From positions 23,107 through 87,106 of the forward strand of contig URPE01000003.1 in NCBI GenBank assembly GCA_900549625.1: a DNA stretch of 64,000 bases, written 5' to 3'. Shown here in pieces: positions 4,199 through 42,238 of the stretch. Within the stretch, counting starts at the first letter, position 1. The number at the start of each line of letters is the position of its first letter. The notes beneath the pieces are model-generated. The model was not told where the DNA came from and did not search any database. It saw only the letters and a list, made by a program, of their open reading frames with translations. The position numbers and the translations under genes were made by a program. Source of the DNA: an uncultured Mycoplasmatota bacterium. GTDB lineage: Bacteria > Bacillota_I > Bacilli_A > RF39 > UBA660.

Positions 4199-6123
4199 TT
4201 ATTCTCCTTTTCATTATCTAAATATATAAATCCAACCACTGTTAAGCCACTACTTTTATTTGCTCTTCTATAAGCGTCATAAGAACTATAAGTTTTTGTT
4301 CTAACCAATTCTTCAGCATGATTATTAGCATATTCTACTTGACTGCATGAATTATCATTACTACAAGCGTTTCCAACATTGCCTTCACTAATTGTTATTG
4401 ATTTACCATCATACGCTTCAACATAAGCTACATGACCAAATTTGCGTCCCATTAATACGACAACAGAATTGGCTGAAGGTTGTGTTCCAGTCTTATAACC
4501 CATAGTAATAGCAGATGTAAGCCAAGTTTGTGCATTTCCTGTTGGCATCTTTTTACCAGAAGTTTCAAGAGTTCTACCAAAAGCATACCAAGTACACTGA
4601 CCTTTATATCCAGCAATTGTTAATGCATTTTTTGAATTATAATTATCACTTTTTAAATCTGCTGAAATTTCATTTTTACCATATACAGGAGTATGAGTTA
4701 TGAAGTTATTTCCAAGTAACTCAGCAAAGTCATCAGATTGATATAATAAAGATAACATTTCTTTTTGGTCATCTGAAAACGACTTATCAGATCCATCTGT
4801 TACTTTCTTTTTTTTATTAAAGTCTGCTACTTTTGAATAATTATTATTTAACCACTCTAAATAATCTTCATAAACACCGTTTGTAATTACCAAGACTGGG
4901 ATTGATGAGGAAGATGATTGACCATATTGTAAATCTTGAGATGGCGAATTTAATGATGGTGCAGATGGATTAGGTGTAGTCGAGTTATTATTTTCTACTT
5001 CTTGATACACAACTTCATGTTTTTCAAATAATCCAGCATTTTTAAATGTATCTAGTAATGCTTTCTCATCTGAATCAAAACTTAATTCAGCACCTGTTGA
5101 CTGCATAATAGCAAGAGGTATACGCCAATCTATTTGACCATAATCACCATTTACACCAACAACAATTCCATTAGGATTAAGTCTTTTCCAAGTATCAACC
5201 TGTGTATTGTATTCACTTTGCACAGATGCCATATATGATGAATAATCAGTTATTGACTTATCGCCTGATGAACTACTACCAAATATACAACATGCACCAA
5301 TTACAATAATCATTGCTAAACCAATAATTACTGCAAATAAAGAAGAAGATGTGAATAGCGATAATAATAGTTTTAAAATTTTAACTAAAACTGTTTTTGC
5401 AATTTGAGCAAGTTTTTTGCCAATTGTCTGACTAAACTTTCTTTGAATTTTTTTTCCACCTTTTTTGGCGATTTTATAACTTGTAGTTTTTACTTTACGA
5501 CCAATTTTATCATTTATATACTCAGTCCCAGTTCCATCACTACTCATCATCTTATTTAATTCTCTGGATACTTTTGTAACATTTTTTCTGGTCTTTGAAA
5601 TTTTATTTCCTGTCTTTCCTATAACGGTAAATGTTTTAGATACCTTGCCTTGATTATCATTAAATTTAAAAGTTTTTTGTGTAGCTTTTGAAACGGAAGT
5701 TTTTAATTTACTGAATCTAGAAATAGACTCAGCCTTGCCTTCTTTTTTATCTCCAGAAGTATTAGCCTCCACATCTTCATTATTGACATTAGTTTTTATC
5801 CTACTAGTTGTTTCATTTTGAGAATTAATCTCATTTGAATTATTGACATTAGTTTTCATTCTACTAGTTGTTTCATCTTGATCATTTATCTTACTTGAAT
5901 CTTCATTTTCTTGTATTCCTTCAGAAGTTTGTAATTGTGAATTGCTTTCTTCTTTTTTTCGATTTTCCTCTTCTTGAAATTTAAGCCTTCGTTCTTCTTT
6001 AACATCAGATATTTTTCTGGCAGATTTATCTACTAAATCAAATGTTTTAGATGATGCAGAAGAAGAAACAATTGATAATCTATCAATCGACTTCTTCGTA
6101 TCTCTCTCTGCATTATTATTCAT
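4195..6123 (-). CDS. Conjugation-associated cell-wall hydrolase with a C-terminal CHAP domain (VirB1/PrgK analogue)
   Basis: Central TM. C-terminal CHAP motifs GQCTWYAFGR ... GHVAYVEAYDG. Located directly downstream of VirB4. Confidence 0.8.
   Translation of the reverse strand: MNNNAERDTKKSIDRLSIVSSSASSKTFDLVDKSARKISDVKEERRLKFQEEENRKKEESNSQLQTSEGIQENEDSSKINDQDETTSRMKTNVNNSNEINSQNETTSRIKTNVNNEDVEANTSGDKKEGKAESISRFSKLKTSVSKATQKTFKFNDNQGKVSKTFTVIGKTGNKISKTRKNVTKVSRELNKMMSSDGTGTEYINDKIGRKVKTTSYKIAKKGGKKIQRKFSQTIGKKLAQIAKTVLVKILKLLLSLFTSSSLFAVIIGLAMIIVIGACCIFGSSSSGDKSITDYSSYMASVQSEYNTQVDTWKRLNPNGIVVGVNGDYGQIDWRIPLAIMQSTGAELSFDSDEKALLDTFKNAGLFEKHEVVYQEVENNNSTTPNPSAPSLNSPSQDLQYGQSSSSSIPVLVITNGVYEDYLEWLNNNYSKVADFNKKKKVTDGSDKSFSDDQKEMLSLLYQSDDFAELLGNNFITHTPVYGKNEISADLKSDNYNSKNALTIAGYKGQCTWYAFGRTLETSGKKMPTGNAQTWLTSAITMGYKTGTQPSANSVVVLMGRKFGHVAYVEAYDGKSITISEGNVGNACSNDNSCSQVEYANNHAEELVRTKTYSSYDAYRRANKSSGLTVVGFIYLDNEKENK
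5779..5880. repeat. Two copies of a ~42-bp imperfect direct repeat with a 60-bp period, inside the hydrolase gene
   Basis: attattgacattagttttTatCctactagttgtttcatTttg at 5779-5820 and again at 5839-5880. Encodes ETTSR(M/I)KTNVNN twice. Confidence 0.7.
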
Positions 6124-6124
6124 A

Positions 6125-17964: not shown

Positions 17965-18993
17965 TTACCTTTCCAATTCACAGTCATCTAATTCAACTTG
18001 AGATTGAATATTTTCAACCATTTTATTAAACATAACTTCATCTTTTTCTATTGCAATGCTATTTCTATTAGTATTTAAACATGCAACAACAAAATTACCA
18101 CTACCTGCATACTGATCTAATAAGGTTTCAAAAGGATTTGAAATATATGAAATAATGTTTTCCAAAAGTTCTACTGGTTTTTCTGCTTCCATTACCTTAT
18201 CATTTTTTCCTCTTGGTTGATAATCAAATGTTGTGGGTAGCATACCATTAGTTCCCTTCATATAACATACATCAAATCCCTTATTAATTAAAATATCCCT
18301 TACTTCATAGGAAGTTTTTCCCTTAATATCAATATTATTTTTAGTTGCTATTTCTATATTTTTCTTGGCATCTAATTTTAAAGTTCTAGGTTCTCCCTTT
18401 GAGAAAATCATAACATCTTCTACATTCTTAGATTTTCTTCCTGTATTAGCAACAAAATCACCTTTTTTCCATGGTACTTTAGCAAAATACTTAAATCCAC
18501 TTTTAATTGCCGTATCTTTTATTTCAAAAAGATATTTATAATTAATTTCAGATTCTTCAGGTAAAAATTCTACAAGAAAAGCTCCGTCTTTTAAAACTCT
18601 TTGTTTTTCCTCAAAATCTTTTTGATTATATTTAAATAATTCATAAGAAGCAAATTTTCTATTTCCTCCTGTTAATGCCTTTGATAAATCGTAAGGATGA
18701 TCTGTTATAATTCCATCTATTGAATTATCTGGAATCATAGATAAATCTCTGCCATCTCCATTAATAAGTAAACAATCATTTCTATTGCCGTTAATTTGAG
18801 AAGTAACTTTATATACTCCACGAGAAACTTTTTCAAACAATCCTTTTTCAACGCCTTCGTATATTCTTGCTCTTATTGATTCATTATTTACTTTCATTAC
18901 AGAGTTAACAAGATTTGTTGCCTCTTTAACAGTAAATTGATTATCATCCAAAAAATACTGAAATAGATTCATTTGAATAGTATTATCTGTCAT
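17965..18993 (-). CDS. Orphan DNA methyltransferase (N6-adenine/N4-cytosine, beta-class motif order)
   Basis: A DPPY-type motif (ITDHPYD) precedes the AdoMet motif (LDQYAGSGN). No adjacent restriction endonuclease. Confidence 0.75.
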   Translation of the reverse strand: MTDNTIQMNLFQYFLDDNQFTVKEATNLVNSVMKVNNESIRARIYEGVEKGLFEKVSRGVYKVTSQINGNRNDCLLINGDGRDLSMIPDNSIDGIITDHPYDLSKALTGGNRKFASYELFKYNQKDFEEKQRVLKDGAFLVEFLPEESEINYKYLFEIKDTAIKSGFKYFAKVPWKKGDFVANTGRKSKNVEDVMIFSKGEPRTLKLDAKKNIEIATKNNIDIKGKTSYEVRDILINKGFDVCYMKGTNGMLPTTFDYQPRGKNDKVMEAEKPVELLENIISYISNPFETLLDQYAGSGNFVVACLNTNRNSIAIEKDEVMFNKMVENIQSQVELDDCELER

Positions 18994-27569: not shown

Positions 27570-28721
27570 CTACTTCTTTCTTATAGATAAAACAGCAGGA
27601 TTTACTGTTCCTTTTTCATCAGCATCTTCGATTCCATATTTTTTATTCCAATGTTTTCTATATTCTTCACCTTGTTTTGAAAAATGTGATAATGCGTTTG
27701 CTGTAGCACCAGCCATAAAACCACTTAATCCTAACTCTTCATCATAAACTTGTTGTTCTGCTTCTTCAAAAGAAATACCTTCTTCCATTTTTTTCATCAT
27801 AGATATAGTTGCTTTTACAACAAATACTGAATAACCATCATTACTATTATTATCAGCAAATTGTAACCACTCTTCTGCTGTTTCTGGCTTAACTAATGTT
27901 AATCCTTCCCTCATTAAAGTATATTTCATTTTTTTAGCCTCAGCATCCCCTTTTTCTTTTGCTTCAGCCCATGCTTTATCTTGTTGTTCTTTTTCAGCTT
28001 GTTCAGCATCTACTATTCTATCACCAAATATTAATCTTTTAGAAGCAAATATATCTTCAGCTTTTCTTCTATCATATTCAGGTTCAATAAATGGATTTGA
28101 ATATAATACCTCACCATCTTTTGAAGTTATATCAGAAATTGCAGCTCCATATCCAACAAATGGTATACCACTATATCCAATTTCTACATTTATAAAATCA
28201 GTTACATTCTTTAATTCAGCTGTTTCTTCTTGCTTAACACCATACCACCATCCTGTGTATGATACATCTTCTCCAATATGTTCTCTTAATTTTTCAAACA
28301 TAGCTTTTGCTTTTGACTCTTTGTCTTGTTCTTTTTGAGCTATAAGTTCATCAAAAGTCATATCTCCTTCTTGCATTGGTAAAAATGATCCTGCTTGAGT
28401 ATGACAAACATATTGATAACCATTTCCTTCCATGTTACTAATTAGTATTCTATAATCTGGATTATTTCCATACTGTGCTTTAACTTCATCTAAACTTAAT
28501 CTCTTACCATAATAAATCCATTTTGAAAAATTTGATTTTTCTCCATCAAAACTTTTTTCACCATCTACAACAAATTCTTTGTCATAAAAACGAAAGCCTT
28601 GCATTTTACCATCATTTTCAATTTTCATTGGATCTCTTTCTTCAACTTCTGAAATTGAAGATTCACTAAATAATACTCCTCTGTAAATTTTTTCAACATA
28701 ACTTTTCTTTACTTTTTCCAT
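27570..28721 (-). CDS. Hypothetical protein (first gene of cassette A)
   Basis: 383-aa ORF with RBS AAGGGGGA. No motif recognised. Confidence 0.55.
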   Translation of the reverse strand: MEKVKKSYVEKIYRGVLFSESSISEVEERDPMKIENDGKMQGFRFYDKEFVVDGEKSFDGEKSNFSKWIYYGKRLSLDEVKAQYGNNPDYRILISNMEGNGYQYVCHTQAGSFLPMQEGDMTFDELIAQKEQDKESKAKAMFEKLREHIGEDVSYTGWWYGVKQEETAELKNVTDFINVEIGYSGIPFVGYGAAISDITSKDGEVLYSNPFIEPEYDRRKAEDIFASKRLIFGDRIVDAEQAEKEQQDKAWAEAKEKGDAEAKKMKYTLMREGLTLVKPETAEEWLQFADNNSNDGYSVFVVKATISMMKKMEEGISFEEAEQQVYDEELGLSGFMAGATANALSHFSKQGEEYRKHWNKKYGIEDADEKGTVNPAVLSIRKK

Positions 28722-28747
28722 ATCAATATTTCCCCCTTTTGCAGTCG

Positions 28748-28918
28748 CAAAGTGTAATACTATAAGAAAAAGTAATATCTATTTGCTATTTCATTAGTAT
28801 TTTAATATTGTTTTTTTAATATGATTAAAAAACATATATGGTCAAATTTGACAATTGCTCATTTTTATGTTAGAATACAAGCCATATCAAGCAGAAAATC
28901 TCAAAGTATTACACTTTG
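28748..28918 (+). promoter_or_regulatory. Candidate invertible promoter, switch A. The promoter currently faces away from gene 27570-28721.
   Basis: IR CAAAGTGTAATACT at 28748-28761, with its exact reverse complement at 28905-28918. Between them, on the plus strand, are TTGACA (28848-53), a 17-nt spacer and TGtTAGAAT (-10 at 28871-76). The right IR is part of the hairpin TCTCAAAGT-ATTAC-ACTTTGAGA, followed by TTTTATTTTT. Confidence 0.6.
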
Positions 28919-28923
28919 AGATT

Positions 28924-29811
28924 TTATTTTTGCAATTTTTTTATGTGCTCTAATTCAACCTTTTCACCTGTAAATTTGTTAATATAATCAAACATAGAAT
29001 TTGCATCATCAATAATATCATATCCTTGCACACCCATTTCTTCAGGGCGACAAATTACAATATCATTTTCAGCAAGAGAAATTACTTTTCTAATTGTATA
29101 GTCATCACAGGTTCTACCATAGCCACTTGTCCAAGCACTAGTTATATCTGGAGTCTGTTCCATTAATCTAAATACTAATCTTCTAAAAAATGATGGATGA
29201 GAAAACGGAAAAAACAATTTTTGTATATTAAGCCTTTCTCCACTCTTTTTTAGATTCAATTTAACATAATGTATTTGATTATATTCACTAGACATAGTAA
29301 AAACATTTAATCCTACACTAAATCCCATATTCTCTAAAATTTCAACAATACTTAATGTGATCGCACCACGATTAAAAATTTCGTTTGATGATGCCATTGC
29401 CAAATTAGCTGCATTAAAGTATATATCTATATGTTGGCGTTTTGGATATTGTCTATTTAACATAGAAAGTGGGTTACCTTCTAAATATGCTTTAACATCT
29501 GGAGCATAACCGACATAAAAATTATATTGTTTGCTTTTTTTTCTAGATAATTTTATATACTTTTCTAAGGTATTTTTTAATTCAACAAGTTTCTCAAAAT
29601 TGTCATGATAACCATACTTACACAATTCCTTTGCTTCTTCTAAAGATTGTGTTTTACAAAAATCATAATCTCCTGTTTCACTTGATAAATTTCTATATCC
29701 CCATACTCCACTATTTATTGGTGCATTCTCAATATAATCAAGAAATTCTGCTATGGAATCAAAATCATATTCCATAATATCATAATCATCTTTTTTATAA
29801 TACTTATACAT
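28924..29811 (-). CDS. Hypothetical protein, partner of the AAA ATPase
   Basis: 295-aa ORF that begins 1 nt after the ATPase stop. No motif recognised. Confidence 0.5.
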   Translation of the reverse strand: MYKYYKKDDYDIMEYDFDSIAEFLDYIENAPINSGVWGYRNLSSETGDYDFCKTQSLEEAKELCKYGYHDNFEKLVELKNTLEKYIKLSRKKSKQYNFYVGYAPDVKAYLEGNPLSMLNRQYPKRQHIDIYFNAANLAMASSNEIFNRGAITLSIVEILENMGFSVGLNVFTMSSEYNQIHYVKLNLKKSGERLNIQKLFFPFSHPSFFRRLVFRLMEQTPDITSAWTSGYGRTCDDYTIRKVISLAENDIVICRPEEMGVQGYDIIDDANSMFDYINKFTGEKVELEHIKKLQK

Positions 29812-29812
29812 A

Positions 29813-31558
29813 TTATCTACTCAATCTTAAACGCTTAATACCATCATAGTATTTATTGTCAGAACTTATATTTTGCATATTACCAATTATTGTATTCACA
29901 TCATCTTGTCCCAAATTTTTTACAACATTAGATGTTAATGTATCATTAACAGGTATTCCGTTTATTTCTTTCTTATATACTTTGCCAATACCACGAGTGG
30001 AAACAATGTGAGGTATTTTTGATTGATATACTGCATTTCTAAATGCCCACATAAATTGTAAAACTTCATCATTTGGATATAACGCTTTTTCTAAATTTGT
30101 ATCATAATCAAAGAATATGTTATCAAATCTATCTAGTGTTGCTCCATCTAGTGCATTTCTTCCTACATATTGTAAGTCTGCACCTTTTCCCCATGTATTT
30201 GCTGCTGCAATTATTCTAAAATCAGGATGCCTATCAATTGTTTCGTGTGGAAAAGCCATATATCCATTAGCAAGTGCTGAATTTATAACAATAAGTGCTG
30301 AGGGATCAGAATTATCTATTTCATCTAAGAAGAATATTCCACCATTTTTAAATGCTTTATAAAATTCTGTATCTCTATAATTACCACCTGCGTCTATAAA
30401 GCCAGTTAATTTAAACTCATTTGAAGCATTATTGGTATAATACATATGTTGTCCCAAAGCGTCAGCCACTTGTGATATAGCAACATTTTTACCACTTCCT
30501 GCTGGACCAATTAACATAATCGGTTCATCTAATTGTACCTGTGATAAAATTTGCTCAAATTTTTCATGATAGAATCCACCTTTAGTTTGTCCTAATACAG
30601 TATCTTTTAATTTAATAATATGAACAACTGGTACATCTATTCTACTGGCATATTCTGAAAGTTTTTCGTCAAATAATTCATTTAATTTATCAGTTATTTC
30701 ATGTTCTAGACTAAATTCTTGAAGTGTATTCTTAATTATTTGCAATATTTGTTTCCTTGTTTCAGTATCTAACTCATTCAAAATAAAACTACTTACTTTT
30801 TGTTGTGGATCTCCAGAAGATAGATATTCTTCAATATTTTCTTCTATTTTAGTTCTTATAGCTTCATCTGTAACTTGAACTAATAATGCATTTAATCCAT
30901 CAATTATTGAATCAGCATTTTGTTTTGTTTTTTTAATTAATACTGGATCTTTTCCTTTTTCTACTTTATCACCATCAATTGTGAAAAGTTCTCCATTTTT
31001 CATATATGTGTTTTCATCCATTTCATGAACTTCTTCACAAAATTGTTGTAAAATATCTGCATCATTTGAAAACATTATTTCGTTATTTCTTTTTGTATAT
31101 CCATAATATAAATGAGTATATTTACTATTAGGTTCTGTTACACCTGCAATAATGTCTTCACTATTATTGTCATATATAACTGAACAAAAGTGCATATATT
31201 GACTCAATTTTTTAAACATATTTTCTCTGCTATCAGCATATAAACAGTTGGTAATTCTTTGATACCTATCAGAATCATCAATACCATATTTTGAAAAATT
31301 TCTACATGCTCTTTCTACTTCATTTTGATTATATCCATTTACTGATAAAATTCCAGTCCTTGAATCATAATGTGGATCTCTATCTTCTACATAATTATCA
31401 TAAATTATTTTAGCAAAAATTAAATCATTAGCAGTTTTATATTTTACCGTATAATTACTTGGGCAAATTCTATCTAATGCTCTATAAATATCATTTTCTT
31501 CATATTCCTTTCCTTTATAGGCAATAAAAATTTGTCCACTTTTTTCTGTATTTTCCAT
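29813..31558 (-). CDS. AAA+ ATPase (AAA_5 / MoxR-McrB-like C-terminal domain) with an unknown ~330-aa N-terminal region
   Basis: Walker A (LIGPAGSGKN) and Walker B (GIFFLDEIDN), plus an arginine-finger-like region GRNALDGATLDRF. RBS GGGGGAAAA. Confidence 0.7.
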   Translation of the reverse strand: MENTEKSGQIFIAYKGKEYEENDIYRALDRICPSNYTVKYKTANDLIFAKIIYDNYVEDRDPHYDSRTGILSVNGYNQNEVERACRNFSKYGIDDSDRYQRITNCLYADSRENMFKKLSQYMHFCSVIYDNNSEDIIAGVTEPNSKYTHLYYGYTKRNNEIMFSNDADILQQFCEEVHEMDENTYMKNGELFTIDGDKVEKGKDPVLIKKTKQNADSIIDGLNALLVQVTDEAIRTKIEENIEEYLSSGDPQQKVSSFILNELDTETRKQILQIIKNTLQEFSLEHEITDKLNELFDEKLSEYASRIDVPVVHIIKLKDTVLGQTKGGFYHEKFEQILSQVQLDEPIMLIGPAGSGKNVAISQVADALGQHMYYTNNASNEFKLTGFIDAGGNYRDTEFYKAFKNGGIFFLDEIDNSDPSALIVINSALANGYMAFPHETIDRHPDFRIIAAANTWGKGADLQYVGRNALDGATLDRFDNIFFDYDTNLEKALYPNDEVLQFMWAFRNAVYQSKIPHIVSTRGIGKVYKKEINGIPVNDTLTSNVVKNLGQDDVNTIIGNMQNISSDNKYYDGIKRLRLSR

Positions 31559-31578
31559 ATTTTCCCCCTAACAATCTC

Positions 31579-31735
31579 AAAGTATGATACTTAAAGAAAA
31601 TCTTTAGAAACATAGACTTTATATATTAAGAAAATATATATGACCAAAAACTTTAACCTTTGAGAATTATTGACAAATAAAAAAAATATGGTATTATATA
31701 TTGCAGTCAAAAAAAGTCCCAAAGTATCATACTTT
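31579..31735 (+). promoter_or_regulatory. Candidate invertible promoter, switch B. The promoter faces away from gene 29813-31558.
   Basis: IR AAAGTATGATACTT at 31579-31592, with its reverse complement at 31722-31735. Plus strand: TTGACA (31670-75), a 16-nt spacer and TGgTATTAT (-10 at 31692-97). The right IR hairpin is followed by TTTCTTTTTTT. Confidence 0.6.
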
Positions 31736-31753
31736 AAGACTTTCTTTTTTTAA

Positions 31754-32215
31754 TTAAATTGATCTTTTATAACTTTTTTCTTGTTCCATTTTTTCATGAA
31801 TTTTTGGAGCAACAACTTCCTTATTAGCTCTAATATACTCATCCCAGTTTTTGTGAGTTGGTCCAAATTCTTCTTCATAAGAAGGAACTCCCTCAACTTT
31901 AACTGAATCATCTAAAAATGGTATTGCATAACATAATCCTAAATTTCCTTGAATTTCTTCCTGAGTATAAGCACCACATCTTAATGCCATTAATGTTCTG
32001 TTATACTTTCCCATATCCTTATTGCTACAATCACTATATAGCATCCAAATTTTTCCACTTCTAATATCCAAAGAATCAAGTAGTAAAATATCTAATAATC
32101 CTTTTGGATTTTGTAACATTTGCATTAAAACTGTTAACGCACCTGGATTTCCTTCAGACATGACCATCATCATATCCATCATATTCATATCTCCTGTTAT
32201 CTTTTCATTTCCCAT
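31754..32215 (-). CDS. Hypothetical protein (cassette C)
   Basis: 153-aa ORF with a Met-rich N-terminus. RBS AAGGGGGA. No motif recognised. Confidence 0.5.
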   Translation of the reverse strand: MGNEKITGDMNMMDMMMVMSEGNPGALTVLMQMLQNPKGLLDILLLDSLDIRSGKIWMLYSDCSNKDMGKYNRTLMALRCGAYTQEEIQGNLGLCYAIPFLDDSVKVEGVPSYEEEFGPTHKNWDEYIRANKEVVAPKIHEKMEQEKSYKRSI

Positions 32216-32240
32216 CTATAATTCCCCCTTTAACTATCTT

Positions 32241-32407
32241 AAAGTTAAAAACTAAAAGAATTATAAAGAAATAGTTCTATTTTATTAAATATACATAAAA
32301 AAAGAATATAAGAGGTTTATATTCTTTTTTGGTCAAATTTGACAATTGCTCATTTTTATGCTAGAATACAGCACATATCAACGAGTTATCTCAAAGTTTT
32401 TAACTTT
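32241..32407 (+). promoter_or_regulatory. Candidate invertible promoter, switch C. The promoter faces away from gene 31754-32215.
   Basis: IR AAAGTTAAAAACT at 32241-32253, with its reverse complement at 32395-32407. Plus strand: TTGACA (32339-44), a 17-nt spacer and TGcTAGAAT (-10 at 32362-67). About 60 nt around the promoter are nearly identical to switch A. The right IR hairpin is followed by TTTTTTT. Confidence 0.6.
32296..32330. terminator. Bidirectional terminator-like hairpin inside switch C
   Basis: AAGAATATA-agaggtt-TATATTCTT, flanked by an A-run on the left and a T-run on the right. Confidence 0.5.
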
Positions 32408-32416
32408 GAGATTTTT

Positions 32417-33772
32417 TTATCTTCCATATCTTTTATTAAATTTTTCTATCTGTGATAATGGTCTATTAGTCTTTCTTAAAACTTTTTCTGAATCTGTATT
32501 TTGTTCCAAACCTTGTCTATAAGTTTCAACATTTCTTATTTCATCATAACTAACAGTTCTTCCACTTAATAAATCAAATATTGATTCTCCTAATACGACA
32601 TCTTGTTCTCCGAAATATAAATGTTTTATTACCGAATTTGCTATATAGCCTTTAGAAAAATAGACATCTAATTCTAAAGCTGTAGGCATTGGTTGATTTA
32701 TATTTGATAGTGTTGGAATAGTAATATTCAAAGAATTATTTTTTATTTCTGTTGAATATTTATGTGAATGACCATGTAATATTATTGGTGCTGTTGTTTG
32801 ACGCATTCCACCAGCTTCAATATGATGATACAAATGAATTTTGTCATTTTTCAAATTAATTCCAGTATTGTTATAGCCCCCAATAACAATATCGTGTCTA
32901 AAATTATTACACATTTCTATTATATCCAAAGAGGCTGTGTTAAAGGCACTTATATCATGATCTCCAGCAACACTAAATGTTAAAATACTTTTATCTTGAG
33001 GATAATTTTTTATAAAATACTCTATTTGTTCATATAAATCAGATATTTTTTGTGTTCCTCTAGTAAATGTTCCATCTATAAGATCTCCACCACACAAAAT
33101 AATATTTATACCATTCTTTATACAATAATTATAAGCACGATCTATAAGATCAATTCTTTCTAATTCATTTCCAAAATGTAAATCTGATATTAATAAAAAT
33201 TTCATACTATTTTCATTTGTATCAGTAATAATAGTTCTATCTTGTTTAGCATCCATATAATTTTTTAAATCTTGCATTGTTGAAACATTACTATACTTTA
33301 TAGAACCATCAGAATAATATTTTCTACTATGTCGTATACCTCTATTTTTTAATTTTAATAATTCATCATATAATTGGCTAGATGAAATATTAAGACTCTC
33401 ACATATTTCCCTATTATTTTTTCCTACTTTCAATAATTGCAATAATTGAGCCGAATAATCAACAACTTCTATTTCTGGTTTTTGTTGTACCAATCTATTA
33501 TCTTGTTCTACTGACTTAGGCAAATCTACTGAATCAGTATTCTCAGAATCTTTAGAAAGTAATCTTTTCATCTTAGGAACTATAGTTCCATAATACTTTT
33601 CACTATTTTCCTTACTCCAATTCTTTTGTGGTGATGGATTATGTAAATCATTTCCAAATCTGGATCTGATAATTAACTTTTCATCAATAGACAATCCATA
33701 TATCATATCATCAATTTGCTTTTCAGTATAATCACTAAAATATTCATATACTGTTTGTAATTTTCTTCCCAT
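32417..33772 (-). CDS. Metallophosphoesterase (calcineurin-like) fused to an N-terminal HTH / sigma-region-4-like region (cassette D)
   Basis: Motifs LLISDLHFGN, GGDLIDG, VAGDHD and HGHSH. The N-terminus has IYGLSIDEKLIIRSRFG and NNREICESLNISSSQLYDELLKLKNRG. Confidence 0.7.
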   Translation of the reverse strand: MGRKLQTVYEYFSDYTEKQIDDMIYGLSIDEKLIIRSRFGNDLHNPSPQKNWSKENSEKYYGTIVPKMKRLLSKDSENTDSVDLPKSVEQDNRLVQQKPEIEVVDYSAQLLQLLKVGKNNREICESLNISSSQLYDELLKLKNRGIRHSRKYYSDGSIKYSNVSTMQDLKNYMDAKQDRTIITDTNENSMKFLLISDLHFGNELERIDLIDRAYNYCIKNGINIILCGGDLIDGTFTRGTQKISDLYEQIEYFIKNYPQDKSILTFSVAGDHDISAFNTASLDIIEMCNNFRHDIVIGGYNNTGINLKNDKIHLYHHIEAGGMRQTTAPIILHGHSHKYSTEIKNNSLNITIPTLSNINQPMPTALELDVYFSKGYIANSVIKHLYFGEQDVVLGESIFDLLSGRTVSYDEIRNVETYRQGLEQNTDSEKVLRKTNRPLSQIEKFNKRYGR

Positions 33773-33796
33773 AATAACCCCCTTCGAATGTTTCTT

Positions 33797-33963
33797 AAAG
33801 TTTAAAACTAAATGAAATATTAGAATTTGGGTTTTATTATCGAAGTTTTATACTATATTTTTTCAATTATATATTGTTCCAATTTTGTCAGATTTGACAA
33901 AATTATACTTATATGATAGTATATACGCTATGTTTACGGATGAATCTCAAAGTTTTAAACTTT
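33797..33963 (+). promoter_or_regulatory. Candidate invertible promoter, switch D. The promoter faces away from gene 32417-33772.
   Basis: IR AAAGTTTAAAACT at 33797-33809, with its reverse complement at 33951-33963. Plus strand: TTGACA (33894-99), a 17-nt spacer and TGaTAGTAT (-10 at 33917-22). Confidence 0.55.
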
Positions 33964-33979
33964 GAGAAAAAAATAAATC

Positions 33980-34462
33980 TCAACTATTGGGATTTATTTT
34001 TTTTGTTAACTTTTTAGGAAGATTGTCGGTTGTATCATATAAAGCTTGATTTAGTATATTAATATCAAAATCAAAATCATTATATCCTTGCAAACATGTA
34101 GATACATATTTTTTTGATGGAATATGATAATTATAACTTTTATTCATTATATAAATAAGAGCTTTTTTCTTTTTTCCTTCTACTTGTATTGGAATATAAA
34201 ATTTAGAATATGAGTTAGGATAACCTTCATAATCATCTAAAGAAAGAATATCAAAGTATGAAACTTCGAATAATCCTAATGGTACTTCTGATCCTTTAGA
34301 TTTTTCTATAGTTAAATATGCAAAATTGTCAGCTAATCCTTTATACACTAATCTATAATCTTTTAAATTCATTTTGCCTATCGGCTTTGCTGTTGGACAC
34401 CTATATTTCATTTGTTCCAAATTCAGATTACTTCCATACGCCAAATAATATTTTTTAAACAT
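33980..34462 (-). CDS. Gamma-glutamylcyclotransferase (AIG2/GGCT-like)
   Basis: YLAYGSNLNLEQMKYRCP N-terminal signature and DDYEGYPNSY. The ATG at 34462 has an AGGTG RBS, whereas the longer ORF start at 34516 overlaps the amidoligase gene. Confidence 0.7.
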   Translation of the reverse strand: MFKKYYLAYGSNLNLEQMKYRCPTAKPIGKMNLKDYRLVYKGLADNFAYLTIEKSKGSEVPLGLFEVSYFDILSLDDYEGYPNSYSKFYIPIQVEGKKKKALIYIMNKSYNYHIPSKKYVSTCLQGYNDFDFDINILNQALYDTTDNLPKKLTKKINPNS

Positions 34463-34472
34463 ATTATCACAC

Positions 34473-35471
34473 CTACTTAATAAATTTCTTAGCCCTTGCA
34501 GCTGTTTTAATACCATAATTTTCTTGAAAATCCTTTAAATATTGTCTTAAAAAATACATTTTATCTACATTATTATCAAATACTAAATCAACAAATTCTA
34601 GTGCATTCTTTAAATTAACTTCATTATATAAAAATTCATTACCTGAATATGATAAATATTCATGAGTAAGCTTATAATCTAAAAAATCTTCATCCATAGC
34701 TTTATCCCTAGATGACAATAACATCTTTGATAAAGTATTAATATTATTTTGCCATACTACTTCATTTGTTGTTGCGTTTGGGCTTCTAAATTCCAGTGTA
34801 TTTTTACCATATCTATACCATGGATCACAAAAATCAACATTACAAAAGTTCAAGGCTGCATATCTTTCATTGGTTTGTAAATTCCAGCGAATATCAGATA
34901 TTGAATTTGCCTTACTTATATCAGACATTCTATTATAAATTAAATCTGCTGTTGGTGGAGCATATTTAAATAACTTTTTTCTACCACTAATTTTATCTCC
35001 ATATATAAATCTAAACAAAACATTTTCATAAGCCGTATATAATTTGAGAAAACATTTCCATGCTTCTACATCTTCTCCTAATATACTTGCACCAATATGA
35101 ATATGCCCACCTGCATTATGCAATGTATCTGCTTTTCTTTTTGAAAGATGTTCACAAACTTTCTTTAGTTCTTTCCAATACCTAATATTATCTGACATAA
35201 CAGGTGATGTAATTTCGCCACCAGAACTTAATGAACCATCACTTTTTGAATTCCAATCTCTTAGATTTTTTGCTATAAAGTTGTCTGTTAACGATTTTAA
35301 AATACCTTCATACTCTATTTCGATTCCAAATGTTACATCATTAGGCAAATTTAATGTATCTCTATATTCTAAAAAATAACGGTTAGTTTCTACCAATAAA
35401 TTTTGTAAATCTACTCCTCTTAAAAATGAAAAATTATCATTTCTTTTTTGATTCATAAATGTATTATTCAT
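34473..35471 (-). CDS. Amidoligase-family enzyme (glutamine-synthetase-like fold, Amidoligase_2 type)
   Basis: Motifs FGIEIEYEG, SDGSL..GGEITSP and AGGHIHIG. Linkage to GGCT matches the described amidoligase neighbourhoods on mobile elements. Confidence 0.6.
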   Translation of the reverse strand: MNNTFMNQKRNDNFSFLRGVDLQNLLVETNRYFLEYRDTLNLPNDVTFGIEIEYEGILKSLTDNFIAKNLRDWNSKSDGSLSSGGEITSPVMSDNIRYWKELKKVCEHLSKRKADTLHNAGGHIHIGASILGEDVEAWKCFLKLYTAYENVLFRFIYGDKISGRKKLFKYAPPTADLIYNRMSDISKANSISDIRWNLQTNERYAALNFCNVDFCDPWYRYGKNTLEFRSPNATTNEVVWQNNINTLSKMLLSSRDKAMDEDFLDYKLTHEYLSYSGNEFLYNEVNLKNALEFVDLVFDNNVDKMYFLRQYLKDFQENYGIKTAARAKKFIK

Positions 35472-35484
35472 TTTACTATCACCC

Positions 35485-36339
35485 TTATATTCTTCTTAAT
35501 TTATAAGAATATCCATCAATACTACTATTATTATCATTGTTTAGCATTGACAAATTTTCTTGTTTCATTTTTAAAATTTTTTTCATTGTATCTAACTCTT
35601 CTTTATTTATTTTTCTAAAAGAAGGTTCATATTCTCTCAATTTATCTCTCATATATGTCTTTACAAATATTTTTTCTAAAAGTCTAACATTATTACCATA
35701 GGATAATACTAAAACTATATACCATAAAGAATGCCAAAAATTTTCACTTTTTGTTTCTAATCTTGTAATAGTTTCTTCTTCAGATTCTGAATGATCAATC
35801 ACAATTATTGCATCAGAATTATATATTTGATCTTCTGGATTTAAAGCGTTTTTCTTTACTGTTTTTATATCAGTTATGACTAAAGCATTATCTATATCAT
35901 CTTTTGTCATTTCTAGAATCTTCTCTTTATTTTCTAAATCAATATCATCATTCAATCTATATGAAGTAACAGTTCTTTCATAAAGACCTTGTTCATTTAC
36001 AATCCATCCAGTTGAATATTCTATTAATTCATCATCATAATCGAAATCATAAGATAAGTGTTCAAGATGAATTCCACTAGAAGTGTCTATAGTTTCAATA
36101 CCAGCTTTTTCAACAATTTCATCTACACGAAATGGTGCATTTCCTTTTGATGTTTGTGCATTAGCAATAATCATTGCTACTATAATAAACGGAAGAGCAT
36201 AATCTACTGCTATACCACTTTTTATTAACGATCTCACTACTGCATTACGAATATTATATAATTTTCTATGTTCTATTTTGTTTTGCAATCTATTAGCATC
36301 TTTTGTTAGTTTTTTCATTAACTCATTATTATCTATCAT
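35485..36339 (-). CDS. Two-TM membrane protein (paralog of 36329-37219)
   Basis: Coiled-coil N-terminus, then TM, a ~150-aa loop and a second TM. Shares the PF(H/R)xDEI motif after TM1 with the upstream gene. The ATG at 36339 has a GAAGGG RBS. Confidence 0.5.
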   Translation of the reverse strand: MIDNNELMKKLTKDANRLQNKIEHRKLYNIRNAVVRSLIKSGIAVDYALPFIIVAMIIANAQTSKGNAPFRVDEIVEKAGIETIDTSSGIHLEHLSYDFDYDDELIEYSTGWIVNEQGLYERTVTSYRLNDDIDLENKEKILEMTKDDIDNALVITDIKTVKKNALNPEDQIYNSDAIIVIDHSESEEETITRLETKSENFWHSLWYIVLVLSYGNNVRLLEKIFVKTYMRDKLREYEPSFRKINKEELDTMKKILKMKQENLSMLNNDNNSSIDGYSYKLRRI

Positions 36340-37219
36340 TGTTTTTACCCTTCTTTGTTCTTGAAAGAGATAAAATTTTTTCATTTGTTAATGCTAATTC
36401 TTCTTGCATTGGTTTGATTGCCTTAATTCTATAATTATAATCATTATTAGTACGCTTTAATTCCCATAAATATTCAAAATCCCTGAAATAAGCAATAGTT
36501 CCACCTATTCCTAGTCCAAGAATAAGCTCAACAATAGTAATAACAACATTTTTTAAATCTGTTTCATTATATTTTAGAGTGTCATTTTTATCTAACATGT
36601 GCAAACTAGCTTCAAAAAAATAGTCCATTTTTTCTGTTTCATCAATGCTATTAACTGTTTGTTTCTCCTCTTTATAATCCTTTAGATTTTCTTCTATATA
36701 TGAATAATCCTCTTCTAAAACAGCATTAAATAATTCTAATGAATTTAATTTATCTATATCATATTCTCTTTTATAACGAGTATACTGACTATTCTCATAT
36801 TTCCATGGAGTATATATAGTTAATTCATTTGATGGTAAATTGTCGTCAAGCAACCCATTTGTTCTATATGATTCATCCATAGTTACATAGCCATTTGTTT
36901 GATAATCTAAATCATATAATTTATATTTAGTAATTTCATCAGTATGAAATGGTAAGCCTCCACCAAACATTTTAAATACGCCAACAGTTAATCCTGCTGT
37001 AATTACAAAAGGTGCAACAAAATTACAAGTATTACCAAATATTTTTAAATTCCTTATATTTAGTTGTTTAAAATTTTCTACTCTTTGCTCTGCAATTTGC
37101 TTTTCTAATTGAATTGTTTTTTCTCTTAAATCTTGAAGTTCTTTAATTTGACTTTTTCTTTCTTTTATTCTTCTTTGCTCTGATTGTTGTTTTTGTTTTC
37201 TAGTTTTTCGATTGCTCAT
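36329..37219 (-). CDS. Two-TM membrane protein (first gene of cassette E)
   Basis: The ATG at 37219 (MSNRKTRK...) has RBS AAGGGGGA. The ORF-track start at 37243 is a non-ATG codon inside the IR. Confidence 0.5.
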   Translation of the reverse strand: MSNRKTRKQKQQSEQRRIKERKSQIKELQDLREKTIQLEKQIAEQRVENFKQLNIRNLKIFGNTCNFVAPFVITAGLTVGVFKMFGGGLPFHTDEITKYKLYDLDYQTNGYVTMDESYRTNGLLDDNLPSNELTIYTPWKYENSQYTRYKREYDIDKLNSLELFNAVLEEDYSYIEENLKDYKEEKQTVNSIDETEKMDYFFEASLHMLDKNDTLKYNETDLKNVVITIVELILGLGIGGTIAYFRDFEYLWELKRTNNDYNYRIKAIKPMQEELALTNEKILSLSRTKKGKNNDR

Positions 37220-37242
37220 TTTAAGTCCCCCTTTTATTCTCA

Positions 37243-37407
37243 AAGTGCATTACTTTATGATAATCGCTTTGAATGCACTATATAATATCATAAATTCATA
37301 AAAAGTCAAGTTTTGGAAGAAACATTATGATTATTGAAACTGGTCAGCTGAAAAGAAAATCCCCTTTTTTATGTGGTATATGAATCTGTTCTCAAAGTAA
37401 TGCACTT
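37243..37407 (-). promoter_or_regulatory. Candidate invertible promoter, switch E. The promoter faces INTO the operon 37219-33980 (ON-like orientation).
   Basis: IR AAGTGCATTACTTT at 37243-37256, with its reverse complement at 37394-37407. Minus strand: TTGACT (37309-04), a 16-nt spacer and TGaTATTAT (-10 at 37287-82). The spacing (84 nt, then promoter, then 25 nt) mirrors switches A-D. Confidence 0.6.
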
Positions 37408-37420
37408 AAAGTAATTATTA

Positions 37421-37460: not shown

Positions 37461-38555
37461 TTATTTGTAAAATGGTTTTAATTGATTCATCATTAAAACT
37501 TTATTTTCATAATTTGGGTGAACATATCTTTCTAATGTTATTTTGACGCTTGAGTGTCCCAATATTTCACTTAATGTTTTAGGATCACATCCGTTTTCAA
37601 TACATCTTGTTGCAAAAGTATGTCTTAATGCGTGAAAATTATACTTTTCTAATTCAATAGAGGTAAGGATTTTTTTATATCTGTTAAAAAAAGTTCTTGA
37701 TTCAACAAATTTTTCTGTTCCAGATATTAAAAATGTATTTGGTGTTGCATCAACAGATAATTCTTTTAGTGTAGGAATAATAAAATCTGGTATTGGTATT
37801 TCTCTTATTGATGATGCAGATTTTGGTTCATCAATAATAACAATAGTTTTTTTCTTAGGGTTCTCTTCTGGATTTTTAATTCTTACTAAAGTTTTCTTTA
37901 TATTTATTTTTTTATTATTTAAATCAATATTTTTCCATTGGAGAGCACATAATTCACCAATTCTCAATCCAGTATATAAACATAGATAAATACCAAAAGT
38001 TGTTTCATTTAGATTAGACATCAATTCTTTTTCTAGTATTAATTGTTCTTCCTTCTTTAAAATTTGTATTTCTGTTTTTGGTACTTTTGGCATAGGAATT
38101 TTTATATTAATATCCCCTGTTTTCAAAATTTGTTGTAATATTATTAATATATCTTTGACACTTTTAGCTGCCAATCCCTCATCAAGTAATTCAGCCGTAA
38201 ATTTATTTATAATATCTAGTGATATTGTTTTTTTCTTAACTTTTGCAAACTTAGGAATTATTCTTGATTTTAGAGTATATTGATAATTTGAAAAGGTCGA
38301 TTTTTTATTTTTAATTTTTGAATTGTTCATCCACAAATTAATATCATAACCAATATAATTTTTATCAAATATCAATAAATCATTATTTTGAAATAATTCT
38401 TCTATTTTGTTTTTGTAATTCTCAACTACTTCTTCCTCATTACTACCGTAAACAGATTTGTAATTAGATGTCCCATCATCCCTGTAACCATAATGAAATC
38501 TAATTTCAAACCTTCCATCCTTTCTCGAATAAATGTTTTCAATGTCTTCTTTCAT
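37461..38555 (-). CDS. Tyrosine site-specific recombinase (integrase/invertase family)
   Basis: Catalytic-domain motifs GLRIGELCALQWKNID and HALRHTFATRCIENG...LGHSSVKITLERYVH. The ATG at 38555 has an AAGGAGA RBS. Confidence 0.85.
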   Translation of the reverse strand: MKEDIENIYSRKDGRFEIRFHYGYRDDGTSNYKSVYGSNEEEVVENYKNKIEELFQNNDLLIFDKNYIGYDINLWMNNSKIKNKKSTFSNYQYTLKSRIIPKFAKVKKKTISLDIINKFTAELLDEGLAAKSVKDILIILQQILKTGDINIKIPMPKVPKTEIQILKKEEQLILEKELMSNLNETTFGIYLCLYTGLRIGELCALQWKNIDLNNKKINIKKTLVRIKNPEENPKKKTIVIIDEPKSASSIREIPIPDFIIPTLKELSVDATPNTFLISGTEKFVESRTFFNRYKKILTSIELEKYNFHALRHTFATRCIENGCDPKTLSEILGHSSVKITLERYVHPNYENKVLMMNQLKPFYK

Positions 38556-38783: not shown

Positions 38784-39233
38784 TTAAGATATAATATCTG
38801 GATTATCAGTTCTTCCTAAAATATAATCGACAGATTTATTATAGAATTGAGCAATTATAACTACCTTCAATGTTGTTGGTTTTCTATCACCAACTTCAAA
38901 ATGTGAATAAGTTTGTTGAGCAAATCCGAGTTTTTCAGATACTTGTTCCTGAGATAGTTTAGCATCTTTTCTTAACTTAGCAAGTCTTTCACTAAATAAA
39001 GTCCAATCAACAAGCAAATCCCTATCTGGAGTATTTTTATTTCTTGTTAATCCTAACATATAATCAAATGTAACTTTATAATAATTTGCTAATACATTTG
39101 CTTGTTCTACTGGCATATCGTTAATTTCATTCTCCCACTTAGAATATGTATTTCTTTTTACTTTTAAAATATTAGCAATATCTCCTTGCCTTTTATCTTT
39201 TTCTATCCTCAACTCTTCAAATCTAGCCGTCAT
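38784..39233 (-). CDS. XRE-family regulator with two tandem HTH domains
   Basis: Two HTH_3-like units (QGDIANILKVKRNTYSKWE and QEQVSEKLGFAQQTYSHFE). Paralog of 48055-48507. Confidence 0.7.
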   Translation of the reverse strand: MTARFEELRIEKDKRQGDIANILKVKRNTYSKWENEINDMPVEQANVLANYYKVTFDYMLGLTRNKNTPDRDLLVDWTLFSERLAKLRKDAKLSQEQVSEKLGFAQQTYSHFEVGDRKPTTLKVVIIAQFYNKSVDYILGRTDNPDIIS

Positions 39234-39435
39234 TGCAATCACCTACATATTATTTTAAAGTAATTGCAACTAATTATTGACTTTTGGGACGCTATGGGGT
39301 AAAATTAGTATGTAGTAAAGTATGCAGTATAATATCAAATGGGAAAATACCATATTGATTTATATTGCATTTTTTTATTATAATTTTACTGTTAAAGAAT
39401 GGAGGTGAAATAGATTATTTCGTATATTAGGGCAT

Positions 39436-39459
39436 AAAAAAACTTCTATTTGTTAGAAG
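39436..39459 (-). terminator. Rho-independent terminator overlapping the stop codon of 39446-39670
   Basis: Minus strand: CTTCTA-ACAAA-TAGAAG followed by TTTTTTT. Confidence 0.55.
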
Positions 39460-39670
39460 CATCTTTTGTAATAACTATTTTCATGTTATGAATTTTTGCA
39501 ATATGTAATAATGTATCAACGGTACAGTGTCTACTTCCAGATTCTAAAGATTGTATACTTCGTTCTGATCTATTAATAGTTTTGCCAAACTCTTTTTGAG
39601 TTAGTCCAGTCCACTCTCTCAAAATTTTCAGAATATCTTCAGTTGAGTATCCTTCAGCCTGTAATTTCAC
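39446..39670 (-). CDS. Small XRE/Cro-like HTH protein
   Basis: 74 aa with LTQKEFGKTINRSERSIQSLESG. Confidence 0.6.
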   Translation of the reverse strand: MKLQAEGYSTEDILKILREWTGLTQKEFGKTINRSERSIQSLESGSRHCTVDTLLHIAKIHNMKIVITKDASNK

Positions 39671-41262: not shown

Positions 41263-41341
41263 ATCAATTATTGACAGTAATTGATTTTTTTATTAGAAAA
41301 AGCAGATAGTTTAAAAAATCTGCTTAATAATTATAGTATAT

Positions 41342-42238
41342 TTATTGTAATTCTATAATAATCTTTAATTGATTGTTATGCTTTTCTGCATAAATATTAC
41401 CATTTAATTGTTTAGTAAATTCTTTTGCTATAGCTAATCCTAGACCAGTTCCCTCTTTTGTTCTTGATATATCTACGGTATAAAACTCATCAAAAATTCT
41501 ATCAATATCAACATCATTATCTAATAATTCATTACTAAAAATTATTTTTACTTTATTTTCTATTTCTACTTTTATATTTAAATCACTATTACTATGTTTA
41601 TAAGCATTTCCTATTAAATTCTCAAAAATTCTTGTTAATAACATTTTATTGGAATTTATAATTATTTTTCTTTGGTTACAATCTAATAATATTTCCCTGT
41701 TATTCTTTTTATAATCATCATAAAAAACAATAACGCTTTCTTCTAAAACAGAAGTTAAATTAATCTTTTCTAATACTGGTTGTTTATTAGTTGATATTAT
41801 TTTTGAAAATTCAAAGAAAGAACTTATTAATTCTTCTAATCTTCTTAATCTCTTTTCAATCGTGATTAAATCCTTTTTCTTTTCTTCTTCACTCAAATCA
41901 GTTTTCAAAATAATATCAATATACCCTAATGCAGAAGTTAATGGGGTTCTAAGATCATGAGAAATATTTGTCATCATCTTCATTAATGATTTATTCTTAT
42001 TACCATAATCAATTTTTATATTTTTTGACTCTGTTAATAAATTATTTATTTTATATATAAGATTATTTATATTTTTTAAATTATACTTTGAATGAATTAG
42101 TGTATTACTATCCAAATCTTTTATATTATCAATTTCTTTCGATATATGTTTTACTTCATTATGATATAAAAAAAGATAAGTAAGCAATATGATTATAACA
42201 ATAATTAAAATAATTATAATAAATTCCATACTTATCAC
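41342..42238 (-). CDS. Sensor histidine kinase with a single N-terminal TM and no extracytoplasmic domain
   Basis: H-box (NISHDLRTPLTSALGY), N-box-like region (IGNAYKHS) and G-box (GTGLGLAIAKE). Confidence 0.8.
   Translation of the reverse strand: MISMEFIIIILIIVIIILLTYLFLYHNEVKHISKEIDNIKDLDSNTLIHSKYNLKNINNLIYKINNLLTESKNIKIDYGNKNKSLMKMMTNISHDLRTPLTSALGYIDIILKTDLSEEEKKKDLITIEKRLRRLEELISSFFEFSKIISTNKQPVLEKINLTSVLEESVIVFYDDYKKNNREILLDCNQRKIIINSNKMLLTRIFENLIGNAYKHSNSDLNIKVEIENKVKIIFSNELLDNDVDIDRIFDEFYTVDISRTKEGTGLGLAIAKEFTKQLNGNIYAEKHNNQLKIIIELQ

Follow-up and report, generated by a model that had tools for sequence, protein, structure and literature searches.

A 64,000-nucleotide stretch of contig URPE01000003.1 from an uncultured Mycoplasmatota bacterium (hereafter the window) contains five short promoter segments, each placed between inverted copies of a common recombination site and just upstream of a gene or operon. 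We compared the same element in other metagenome assemblies and found that three of these segments, switches 2, 4, and 5, flip singly and independently. The array as a whole is probably a set of five independent invertible promoters (invertons) that have pair-specific spacers within their sites and are served by the tyrosine recombinase encoded next to them. Invertible promoters are well known, and the classical biology of promoter inversion is well supported here. What is unusual is that five switches form an array beside a recombinase, apparently on a conjugative element, that each of them has a private crossover sequence, and that the genes under their control are of the conflict type, among them one for a protein with a Tad4 domain (anti-Thoeris family).

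Inversion of single promoter segments

The unit shared by all switches is a 23-bp site consisting of a 9-nt arm TCTYAAAGT, a 5-nt spacer, and the inverted 9-nt arm; it is longer than had been stated in the first-pass annotation, a reading made from the letters of the sequence. Ten such sites make up five inverted pairs. The core pattern CTYAAAGT-N5-ACTT has 10 matches in the 64-kb window compared with 0.04 expected, and none of 100 shuffled sequences reached 10. Because three sites are perfect palindromes (starting at 28899, 32389, and 33945) and score on both strands, the 10 matches represent only seven distinct sites. The annotation had all ten sites fitting the consensus; this is exactly true of those seven, whereas the remaining three deviate from it by one or two bases. 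These are 1L (start 28745), which reads TCGCAAAGT GTAAT ACTATAAGA, 3L (start 32237), which ends in ...ACTAAAAGA, and 4L (start 33793), which ends in ...ACTAAATGA. All three are recovered by the looser pattern AAAGT-N5-ACT, with 22 matches in the window against 4.2 expected. All 20 half-sites have C, A, G, and T at positions 2, 7, 8, and 9, and 19 of them have T at position 1; an invariant T and A border each 5-nt spacer.

The spacers read GTAAT in switch 1, ATGAT in switch 2, TAAAA in switch 3, TTAAA in switch 4, and GCATT in switch 5. Those of partner sites are exact reverse complements of each other and each is private to its own pair, so the full readout of the sites bore out the description of arms common to every switch and central five nucleotides unique to each pair. 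In switches 2 and 4 the spacer matches its own reverse complement at every position but the center base, and a single position separates the spacers of switches 3 and 4. Across the rest of the 64 kb we found no further core-type sites, save a weak look-alike at 34249. This look-alike (34249-34271, TATCAAAGT ATGAA ACTTCGAAT) lies inside the GGACT gene described below; it is present in all copies, has no partner, and is probably due to chance.

Each site pair encloses 119-131 bp just upstream of the ribosome-binding site and start codon of a minus-strand gene or operon, all genes of the array region being on that strand. In a consensus scan of 11.4 kb, the five best matches to an extended -10 promoter fell one inside each segment, and all five segments thus have the make-up of an inverton: a short stretch bounded by inverted repeats, with an outward promoter beside a gene. 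Switch 5 (37238..37412) is bounded by TCTCAAAGT GCATT ACTTTATGA (37238-37260) and TCTCAAAGT AATGC ACTTAAAGT (37390-37412), which flank 129 bp. Its promoter, TTGACT-16-TATTAT (TG) at 37309-37282 on the minus strand, faces the operon, and the switch is therefore ON in the window. The promoters of the other four switches lie on the plus strand and face away from their genes, leaving these switches OFF. Switch 1 (28745..28921) has TTGACA-17-TAGAAT (TG) at 28848-28876 between site 1L and TCTCAAAGT ATTAC ACTTTGAGA at 28899, and switch 2 (31575..31739) has TTGACA-16-TATTAT (TG) at 31670-31697 between TCTCAAAGT ATGAT ACTTAAAGA at 31575 and TCCCAAAGT ATCAT ACTTTAAGA at 31717. Switch 3 (32237..32411) carries TTGACA-17-TAGAAT (TG) at 32339-32367, with TCTTAAAGT TAAAA ACTAAAAGA at 32237 and TCTCAAAGT TTTTA ACTTTGAGA at 32389, and switch 4 (33793..33967) carries TTGACA-17-TAGTAT (TG) at 33894-33922, with TCTTAAAGT TTAAA ACTAAATGA at 33793 and TCTCAAAGT TTTAA ACTTTGAGA at 33945.

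We located the same element in other human-gut metagenome assemblies by exact-protein look-ups and compared the inner segments and the site halves; the comparison of inversions covers about 16 consensus assemblies of the element. Among the samples with the element are ERZ28622153, ERZ4567620, ERZ4568022, ERZ4560999, ERZ28621811, ERZ28614608, ERZ15610534, and SRR1761720. Switch 5, ON in the window and in L008, was OFF in six assemblies, that is, inverted in 6 of the 7 others spanning the switch. Switch 4 was ON in L009 only and OFF in eight, and switch 2 was ON in L055 only and OFF in 13. Switch 5 of the sister lineage P0003 was also found in both orientations, ON in nine assemblies and OFF in L021 and L024. 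Both orientations, with breakpoints in the repeats, are on record for switches 2, 4, and 5 and for switch 5 of the sister lineage. In the inverted copies the inner segment is 100% identical and reverse-complemented, and one switch differs per event. The inner arms are swapped and the outer arms and the spacer unchanged, which places the crossover inside the core: site 5L, for example, turns from TCTCAAAGT GCATT ACTTTATGA into TCTCAAAGT GCATT ACTTTGAGA on inversion. We ruled out an assembly artefact, as the 23-bp repeats are below the assembler k-mer length and the arms are swapped exactly as predicted. With breakpoints falling within the sites in independent assemblies, the annotation was right to regard the sites as recombination targets, and a role of the palindromic sites as mere terminators or operators can be dismissed. 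In two samples the assembly breaks at switch 5: contigs L019 and L020 end inside it, and the sample of L019 also yielded L012, which begins just past it.

Apart from these inversions, gene order was unchanged at all places listed from 22 and 24 contigs, except in L054, an element with a different cassette set, and L048, where an rve-type insertion sequence (at about 300-400) replaces the promoter half of switch 3. In L011 (5336-5932), a deletion of about 258 bp trims the second gene of the switch 5 operon from 284 to 198 aa.

Measured from center to center, partner sites stand 142-154 bp apart within the window, and the range widens to 118-162 bp over 16 switches from lineages whose recombinases are down to 53% identical. 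In the alignment of these 16 switches, the two inner arms differ: the one downstream of the promoter follows the consensus, and the one upstream is consistently degenerate (ACTWWAAGA); this asymmetry may bias the direction of switching. The gene-distal sites of switches 1 (28895-28925) and 3 (32388-32412) are perfectly palindromic, and together with the T-run behind each of them they score as intrinsic terminators. When these two switches are OFF, the promoter would fire directly into the terminator-like distal site, which may double as an insulator. A separate palindrome, (T)GTCAAATTTGAC(A), overlaps the -35 hexamer in switches 1 (28841-28852), 3 (32332-32343), and 4 (33886-33899) and recurs in the orthologues of L002 and L013. 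It could be an operator for the cI-like helix-turn-helix (HTH) regulators encoded beside the recombinase and would then add a second layer of control.

The adjacent recombinase and related loci

Immediately upstream of switch 5, and adjoining it, lies the gene for a tyrosine recombinase, the candidate invertase (37461..38555, minus strand). The protein has 364 aa when read from an ATG; the mechanically called open reading frame (ORF) starts at a TTG at 38576. It matches the Pfam families Phage_integrase (PF00589, E 3.5e-28) and Phage_int_SAM_3, and its residues R198, K236, H308, R311, H334, and Y344 are invariant in 32 homologues, which places it in the tyrosine recombinase superfamily. An AlphaFold (AF2) model with a mean pLDDT of 84 predicts an N-terminal three-strand beta-sheet with a helix, a helical core-binding domain, and a catalytic domain. 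The best fold matches of the model are Tn1549 Int and full-length lambda Int (about 370 columns), followed by others that include XerA and Cre. Tn1549 Int is also the closest solved relative by sequence (E 1e-15), with an identity of only about 20%. The recombinase scores below the cut-off of every NCBIfam family, and the integron-integrase models among them give 24-45 bits against cut-offs of 265-435. It belongs to a large, unnamed family found in metagenome-assembled genomes of uncultured gut Bacilli, "Tenericutes", and Erysipelotrichaceae; a metagenome scan with the protein returned six loci, three of them distant.

Every homologue locus that reaches past the 3' end of the recombinase gene (53-94% identity) has an adjacent switch with the same arms, the one in L038 being decayed. 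The spacers differ from locus to locus. The P0003 lineage (L013 and L021-L030; 94% recombinase identity) has GTATT, and L013 has in addition a TTAAA switch and a lone TAAAA site. ATTTC, TAAAT, and GTAAA, together with a lone GAATT site, are found in L032 (80%), and GCATT in L034-L037 (76%). At 74% identity we found TTAAA in L002, ATTAA in L003, and both TATTT and GTTAA in L004, and further away ATTTT in L040-L042 (61%) and TTTTC in L043 (53%). In L044 (IMG/VR UViG_3300006217_003059, 5862-7249), with a recombinase of 39% identity, two perfect inverted sites with the spacers TTATT/AATAA stand 1365 bp apart and bracket the recombinase gene, accompanied by an outward promoter, and the enzyme would invert its own gene. 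Given this linkage of recombinase and switches, the adjacent enzyme is probably the invertase of the array.

Several of the recombinase-switch pairs are chromosomal: they lie between spoVA genes and an RNHCP gene, next to ltaS, or next to valS, with conjugation genes absent. The four-gene operon of switch 5 also follows recombinase and switch in chromosomal relatives. L038 (11140-11310; 71% identical recombinase) retains the first three of its genes, and both of its sites have decayed, one of them to TCTCAAAGT AAT TTGAGA. Judged from these sites, the L038 switch is a fossil, its promoter fixed toward the operon and locked ON. In L004 (10001-11096), the reading frame of the recombinase is split and both switches are OFF.

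Spacers and the choice of recombination partner

In the mechanism that we propose, the lambda-Int/Tn916-like recombinase beside switch 5 would bind the common arms of all ten sites, and strand exchange across the spacer would turn the promoter toward or away from the downstream gene or genes. The spacer is where the crossover takes place, and no two pairs have the same one, so that two sites should exchange productively only if they belong to one switch. The five cargo units would then be phase-varied one at a time, and the intervening genes neither deleted nor inverted. We lean toward the view that spacer mismatch is what prevents exchange between switches, with somewhat less assurance than we attach to the role of the enzyme.

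The comparison of assemblies and arrays provides several lines of evidence for this. Among the about 16 consensus assemblies, in which rare events are invisible, there was no inter-switch inversion or deletion, in agreement with the annotation's suggestion that recombination between switches is suppressed. In all multi-switch arrays, those of the window, L032, L004, and L013, the arms are common and the spacers within each array all differ, which is the layout of a heterospecific set. Free exchange between any two sites would homogenize the spacers of an array through segregation of heteroduplexes, and the fact that the arrays stay distinct counts for a role of the spacer. Orthologous switches also retain their spacers where the recombinases have diverged to 74-76% identity: TTAAA remains with the phosphoesterase gene in the window, L002, and L013, the orthologue in L002 standing behind a switch with the identical spacer, and GCATT is the spacer beside the amidoligase operon both in the window and in L034. 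In two orthologous switches a single base of the spacer has changed, and it has changed on both partners, from GCATT/AATGC to GTATT/AATAC and from GTAAT/ATTAC to GTAAA/TTTAC. The latter is the L032 orthologue of switch 1, whose arms are identical and whose cargo proteins are 84% identical.

One switch has been lost in a manner that bears directly on the question. In L021-L030 (10 assemblies, position 14555; compare L013 at 14555-14728), the orthologue of switch 4 is precisely deleted, with the loss of 151 bp, leaving the hybrid site TCTCAAAGT TTTAA ACTTTAAGA that consists of an outer arm, the spacer, and the outer arm of the partner. The switch is still intact in L013, and its deletion, which shows that events other than canonical inversion do occur, fuses the phosphoesterase gene to the upstream operon. 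This sister-lineage orthologue, the spacer of which is asymmetric at its center base only, is the sole switch that we found precisely excised, and it provides a natural test of spacer asymmetry.

A number of points weigh against the reading of five independent switches kept apart by their spacers. Inversion was not seen for switch 1, OFF in 16/16 assemblies, or for switch 3, OFF in all 13/13 assemblies that contain it. The annotation's idea of one recombinase flipping each switch independently agrees with the record of switches 2, 4, and 5, which flip singly in an array with a tyrosine recombinase gene beside it; for switches 1 and 3 the OFF orientation alone is on record. Consensus assemblies cannot show rare inter-switch products. 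The distinctness of the spacers carries no weight on its own, because five random AT-rich 5-mers all differ with p = 0.95. With a one-base gap between switches 3 and 4 and a center-only asymmetry in switches 2 and 4, discrimination would have to rest on a single base pair. Single-base lox variants are leaky, which bears on switches 3 and 4. Nor do the matched partner spacers prove a need for homology, as leaky exchange followed by replication would likewise yield matched daughters. If the excision of switch 4 in L021-L030 was mediated by the recombinase, a one-base mismatch would be no absolute barrier, and the hybrid site is the product expected from partners recombining in the "wrong" alignment over one central mismatch; slippage between a 12/13-matching direct repeat, which results from the palindromic sites, is an alternative source of the deletion. 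Finally, Tn1549 Int opens the 5-7 bp of its crossover region by melting and can do almost entirely without homology (PMC5871717), and IntDOT carries out one of its strand exchanges independently of homology (PMC2034462). The premise of the annotation that strand exchange requires central identity therefore fails as a general rule.

Some of these points would be accommodated if the switches and the role of the adjacent recombinase are real but the choice of partner comes from the geometry of the synapse, that is, from a loop of about 150 bp and possible arm-type or accessory sites, with the spacers drifting neutrally. The match within a pair would persist since the heteroduplex formed by an exchange gives rise, on segregation, to two daughters in which the partner spacers agree, and leaky exchange with segregation explains the one-base compensated spacer changes more easily than does a strict need for identity. 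The predicted N-terminal three-strand sheet with its helix and the alignment to full-length lambda Int hint at a heterobivalent layout of the enzyme, but Pfam detects no arm-binding domain in it, and the 16 aligned switches show no conserved arm-type motif beyond the promoter and the core sites. The narrow spacing of the partners, both in the window and among the 16 switches, speaks for a geometric constraint; the sites of L044, 1365 bp apart, indicate that a 150-bp loop is not obligatory for the family. That the inner arm on the upstream side of the promoter is consistently degenerate suggests that the nucleoprotein complex is built asymmetrically, and the nearest characterized relatives tolerate heterology (PMC5871717, PMC2034462). 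Yet heterology that is tolerated should have homogenized the spacers within arrays, and both the arrays and the orthologues keep distinct ones. On balance, we consider a purely geometric choice of partner rather unlikely.

We regard as less likely still an integron-like cassette platform, in which the recombinase would insert and excise site-promoter-site-gene units and promoter flipping would be only one of its reactions. Homology between elements of differing cargo does start at the outer edge of the distal site (L054 versus L047), although a break at the edge of the site is not a break within the spacer. A solitary TAAAA site closes the chromosomal module of P0003, in the place that the distal site of switch 3 occupies in the window. 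In L032 a solitary site stands next to a promoter that is fixed, and the same types of cargo (phosphoesterase, sigma-70-like, TPR pair, Tad4-like, and amidoligase operon) recur beside different neighbors. The precise excision of switch 4 and its hybrid site fit such a platform, but slippage could have produced them as well. Neither a circular cassette nor an empty site pair was observed, and the scores of the integron-integrase models are far below their cut-offs. The distribution of the units suggests that they behave as modules gained, lost, and fossilized at the sites, and for a part in that the recombinase is only a candidate. Highly improbable, in our judgment, is that a recombinase encoded elsewhere flips the switches and that the adjacent gene is the integrase of the conjugative element. 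The gene has cI-like HTH regulators for neighbors and is situated close to an end of the element, the usual position of an integrase in an integrative conjugative element (ICE), and its best PHROG and structural matches are integrases. However, recombinase-switch pairs occur also at the chromosomal loci without conjugation genes nearby, and the presumed end of the element (about 41.3 kb) carries no core-type site, both of which argue that the enzyme is dedicated to inversion and does not serve the element as its integrase. Furthermore, the arm sequence has remained constant while the recombinase has diverged to 39% identity, and there is no second recombinase among the window ORFs scanned.

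Cargo, comparable systems, and the surrounding element

The genes behind the switches are putative anti-defense and conflict genes, all on the minus strand. Switch 1 precedes a 383-aa protein (27570..28721) with a C-terminal Tad4 (type I Thoeris inhibitor) domain, which matches Pfam PF25186 with E 5.9e-20 and 72 bits against a cut-off of 25. The cargo of switch 2 (28924..31558) comprises, by Pfam and PHROG matches, an AAA_5 (MoxR/CobS-like) ATPase of 581 aa (29813-31558) and a DUF7192 protein of 295 aa (28924-29811). Switch 3 controls a 153-aa protein (31754..32215) that has no family match in Pfam, PHROG, PADLOC, or NCBIfam; exactly this protein is listed in 139 blocks of the metagenome collection. 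Behind switch 4 is a 451-aa calcineurin-like phosphoesterase (32417..33772; Pfam Metallophos, E 5.5e-7) with an HTH- or CARF-like N-terminal region, the N-terminal third having weak PADLOC matches (E about 0.005) to HTH and Csa3/CARF-type sensor models. Very tentatively, it may combine a sensor with a phosphodiesterase and act as a counter-defense enzyme that degrades cyclic nucleotides. The operon of switch 5 (33980..37219) has four genes: two with no assigned function, of 296 aa (36329-37219) and 284 aa (35485-36339), followed by an Amidoligase_2 gene (34473-35471) and a GGACT gamma-glutamyl cyclotransferase-like gene (33980-34462), the latter two assigned by Pfam and PHROG. PADLOC found no defense systems among the cargo.

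The closest architectural parallel is the mpl (P35) family of Mycoplasma penetrans, in which tandem genes have their own short invertible promoters and independent ON/OFF states, and the tyrosine recombinase MYPE2900 is held responsible (PMC2268961, PMC3599477). In both systems tandem genes have their own promoter switches and one tyrosine recombinase is the presumed invertase, and both hosts are AT-rich members of the Bacilli/Mycoplasmatota lineage. We rejected M. penetrans itself as the source of the window, because the ORFs here are long under translation table 11, the window encodes a type IV secretion system of Gram-positive type and sortase-type adhesin domains, and relatives have spoVA genes. 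Horino et al. (2003, 2009) reportedly described an mpl segment of about 135 bp with 12-bp inverted repeats, near in size to the 119-131 bp segments here. The cargo differs: the mpl genes encode surface lipoproteins and serve antigenic variation, whereas the switches of the window, on an apparent conjugative element, precede genes for enzymes that are intracellular and for a protein with a Tad4 domain. In Clostridioides difficile, one tyrosine recombinase, RecV, is reported to flip several short segments (flgB, cwpV, pdcB, and others) independently (PMC9286219, PMC12282940). This, too, is a low-GC Firmicute in which one enzyme acts on multiple independent promoter or regulator segments, but the RecV targets are scattered over the chromosome, whereas the switches here are clustered within 9 kb beside the recombinase and follow a strict arm consensus. 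The inverted repeats of the RecV targets are mutually dissimilar.

With respect to the sites themselves, the integrases of Tn1549 and Tn916 act on a crossover region of 5-7 bp, which is bordered by T and A and set between short, AT-rich arms in inverted orientation (PMC5871717). The layout is the same as in AAAGT-N5-ACTTT here, and that of the protein domains is similar too; these integrases, however, excise and integrate a transposon and ignore homology in the crossover region, whereas the enzyme here is associated with inversion between matched spacers. Shufflons (Rci) and multi-site inversion systems such as vsa and hsd of M. pulmonis resemble the array in having a cluster of many sites served by a single tyrosine recombinase, and Rci, too, works on a mobile element. 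Shufflon sites share one core, so that any pair recombines and the segments are shuffled. The array does not qualify as a shufflon, as no spacer is used by more than one pair and the genes stand in the same order in the assemblies, nor as an integron, as the integrase models stay below their cut-offs and each unit has its own promoter. Engineered lox and FRT variants (lox511, lox2272, and FRT3/F5) are similar in having identical arms and differing spacers, with recombination expected between sites of the same spacer and orientation set by the asymmetry of the spacer. They are laboratory 13-8-13 sites for Cre and Flp with measured orthogonality, whereas the sites here are natural, have a 9-5-9 layout, and belong to an unrelated enzyme, their orthogonality being only inferred.

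If the spacers do confer orthogonality, the array represents a natural solution to the design problem that synthetic biologists met with the lox/FRT variants, and offers a compact family of 9-5-9 sites, many of them orthogonal from the start. Mobile elements would then phase-vary counter-defense genes individually, which bears on the balance of costs and benefits of such genes in the gut. A literature search on the arm motif and on phase-variable anti-defense genes on conjugative elements returned nothing relevant. A broader possibility, which we offer as speculation, is that conjugative elements and chromosomal islands of gut Bacilli carry portable site-promoter-site-gene cassettes for anti-defense and conflict, each with a private 5-nt address, that one arm-reading recombinase serves them, and that the same sites are used for the gain, loss, and exchange of cassettes. 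Each cassette would in that case be an independently phase-variable bit, permitting bet-hedging over 2^5 states of counter-defense expression.

The array apparently lies in the cargo region of an ICE of AT-rich gut Bacillota. No relaxase was found among the window ORFs scanned, and a megablast search of the region against plasmid and phage collections gave zero matches. The Tad4 and PHROG matches had suggested a phage origin; this was dropped given the VirD4, VirB4-like ATPase, PrgI, CHAP hydrolase, and primase genes of the region. At the other end, the flanks of the element diverge between the samples of L005 and L006 (position about 916; about 41263-41342 in the window), past a gene for a 164-aa protein and beside ...TTTTAAACTATCTGC. 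We take this point, where a TCTYAAAGT-type core site is absent, as the end of the element; the genes beyond about 41.3 kb are chromosomal. The cI-like HTH regulators mentioned above are encoded between the recombinase and this end, at 38784-39242 and 39446-39670. The left 26 kb of the window (1-26443) encodes a Gram-positive conjugation apparatus with the CHAP hydrolase, the VirB4-like ATPase, PrgI, and VirD4, together with a 998-aa primase, an orphan N6/N4 DNA methyltransferase (17965-18993), and two adhesins of about 1110 aa that contain SpaA and Flg_new repeats and sortase-type adhesin domains.

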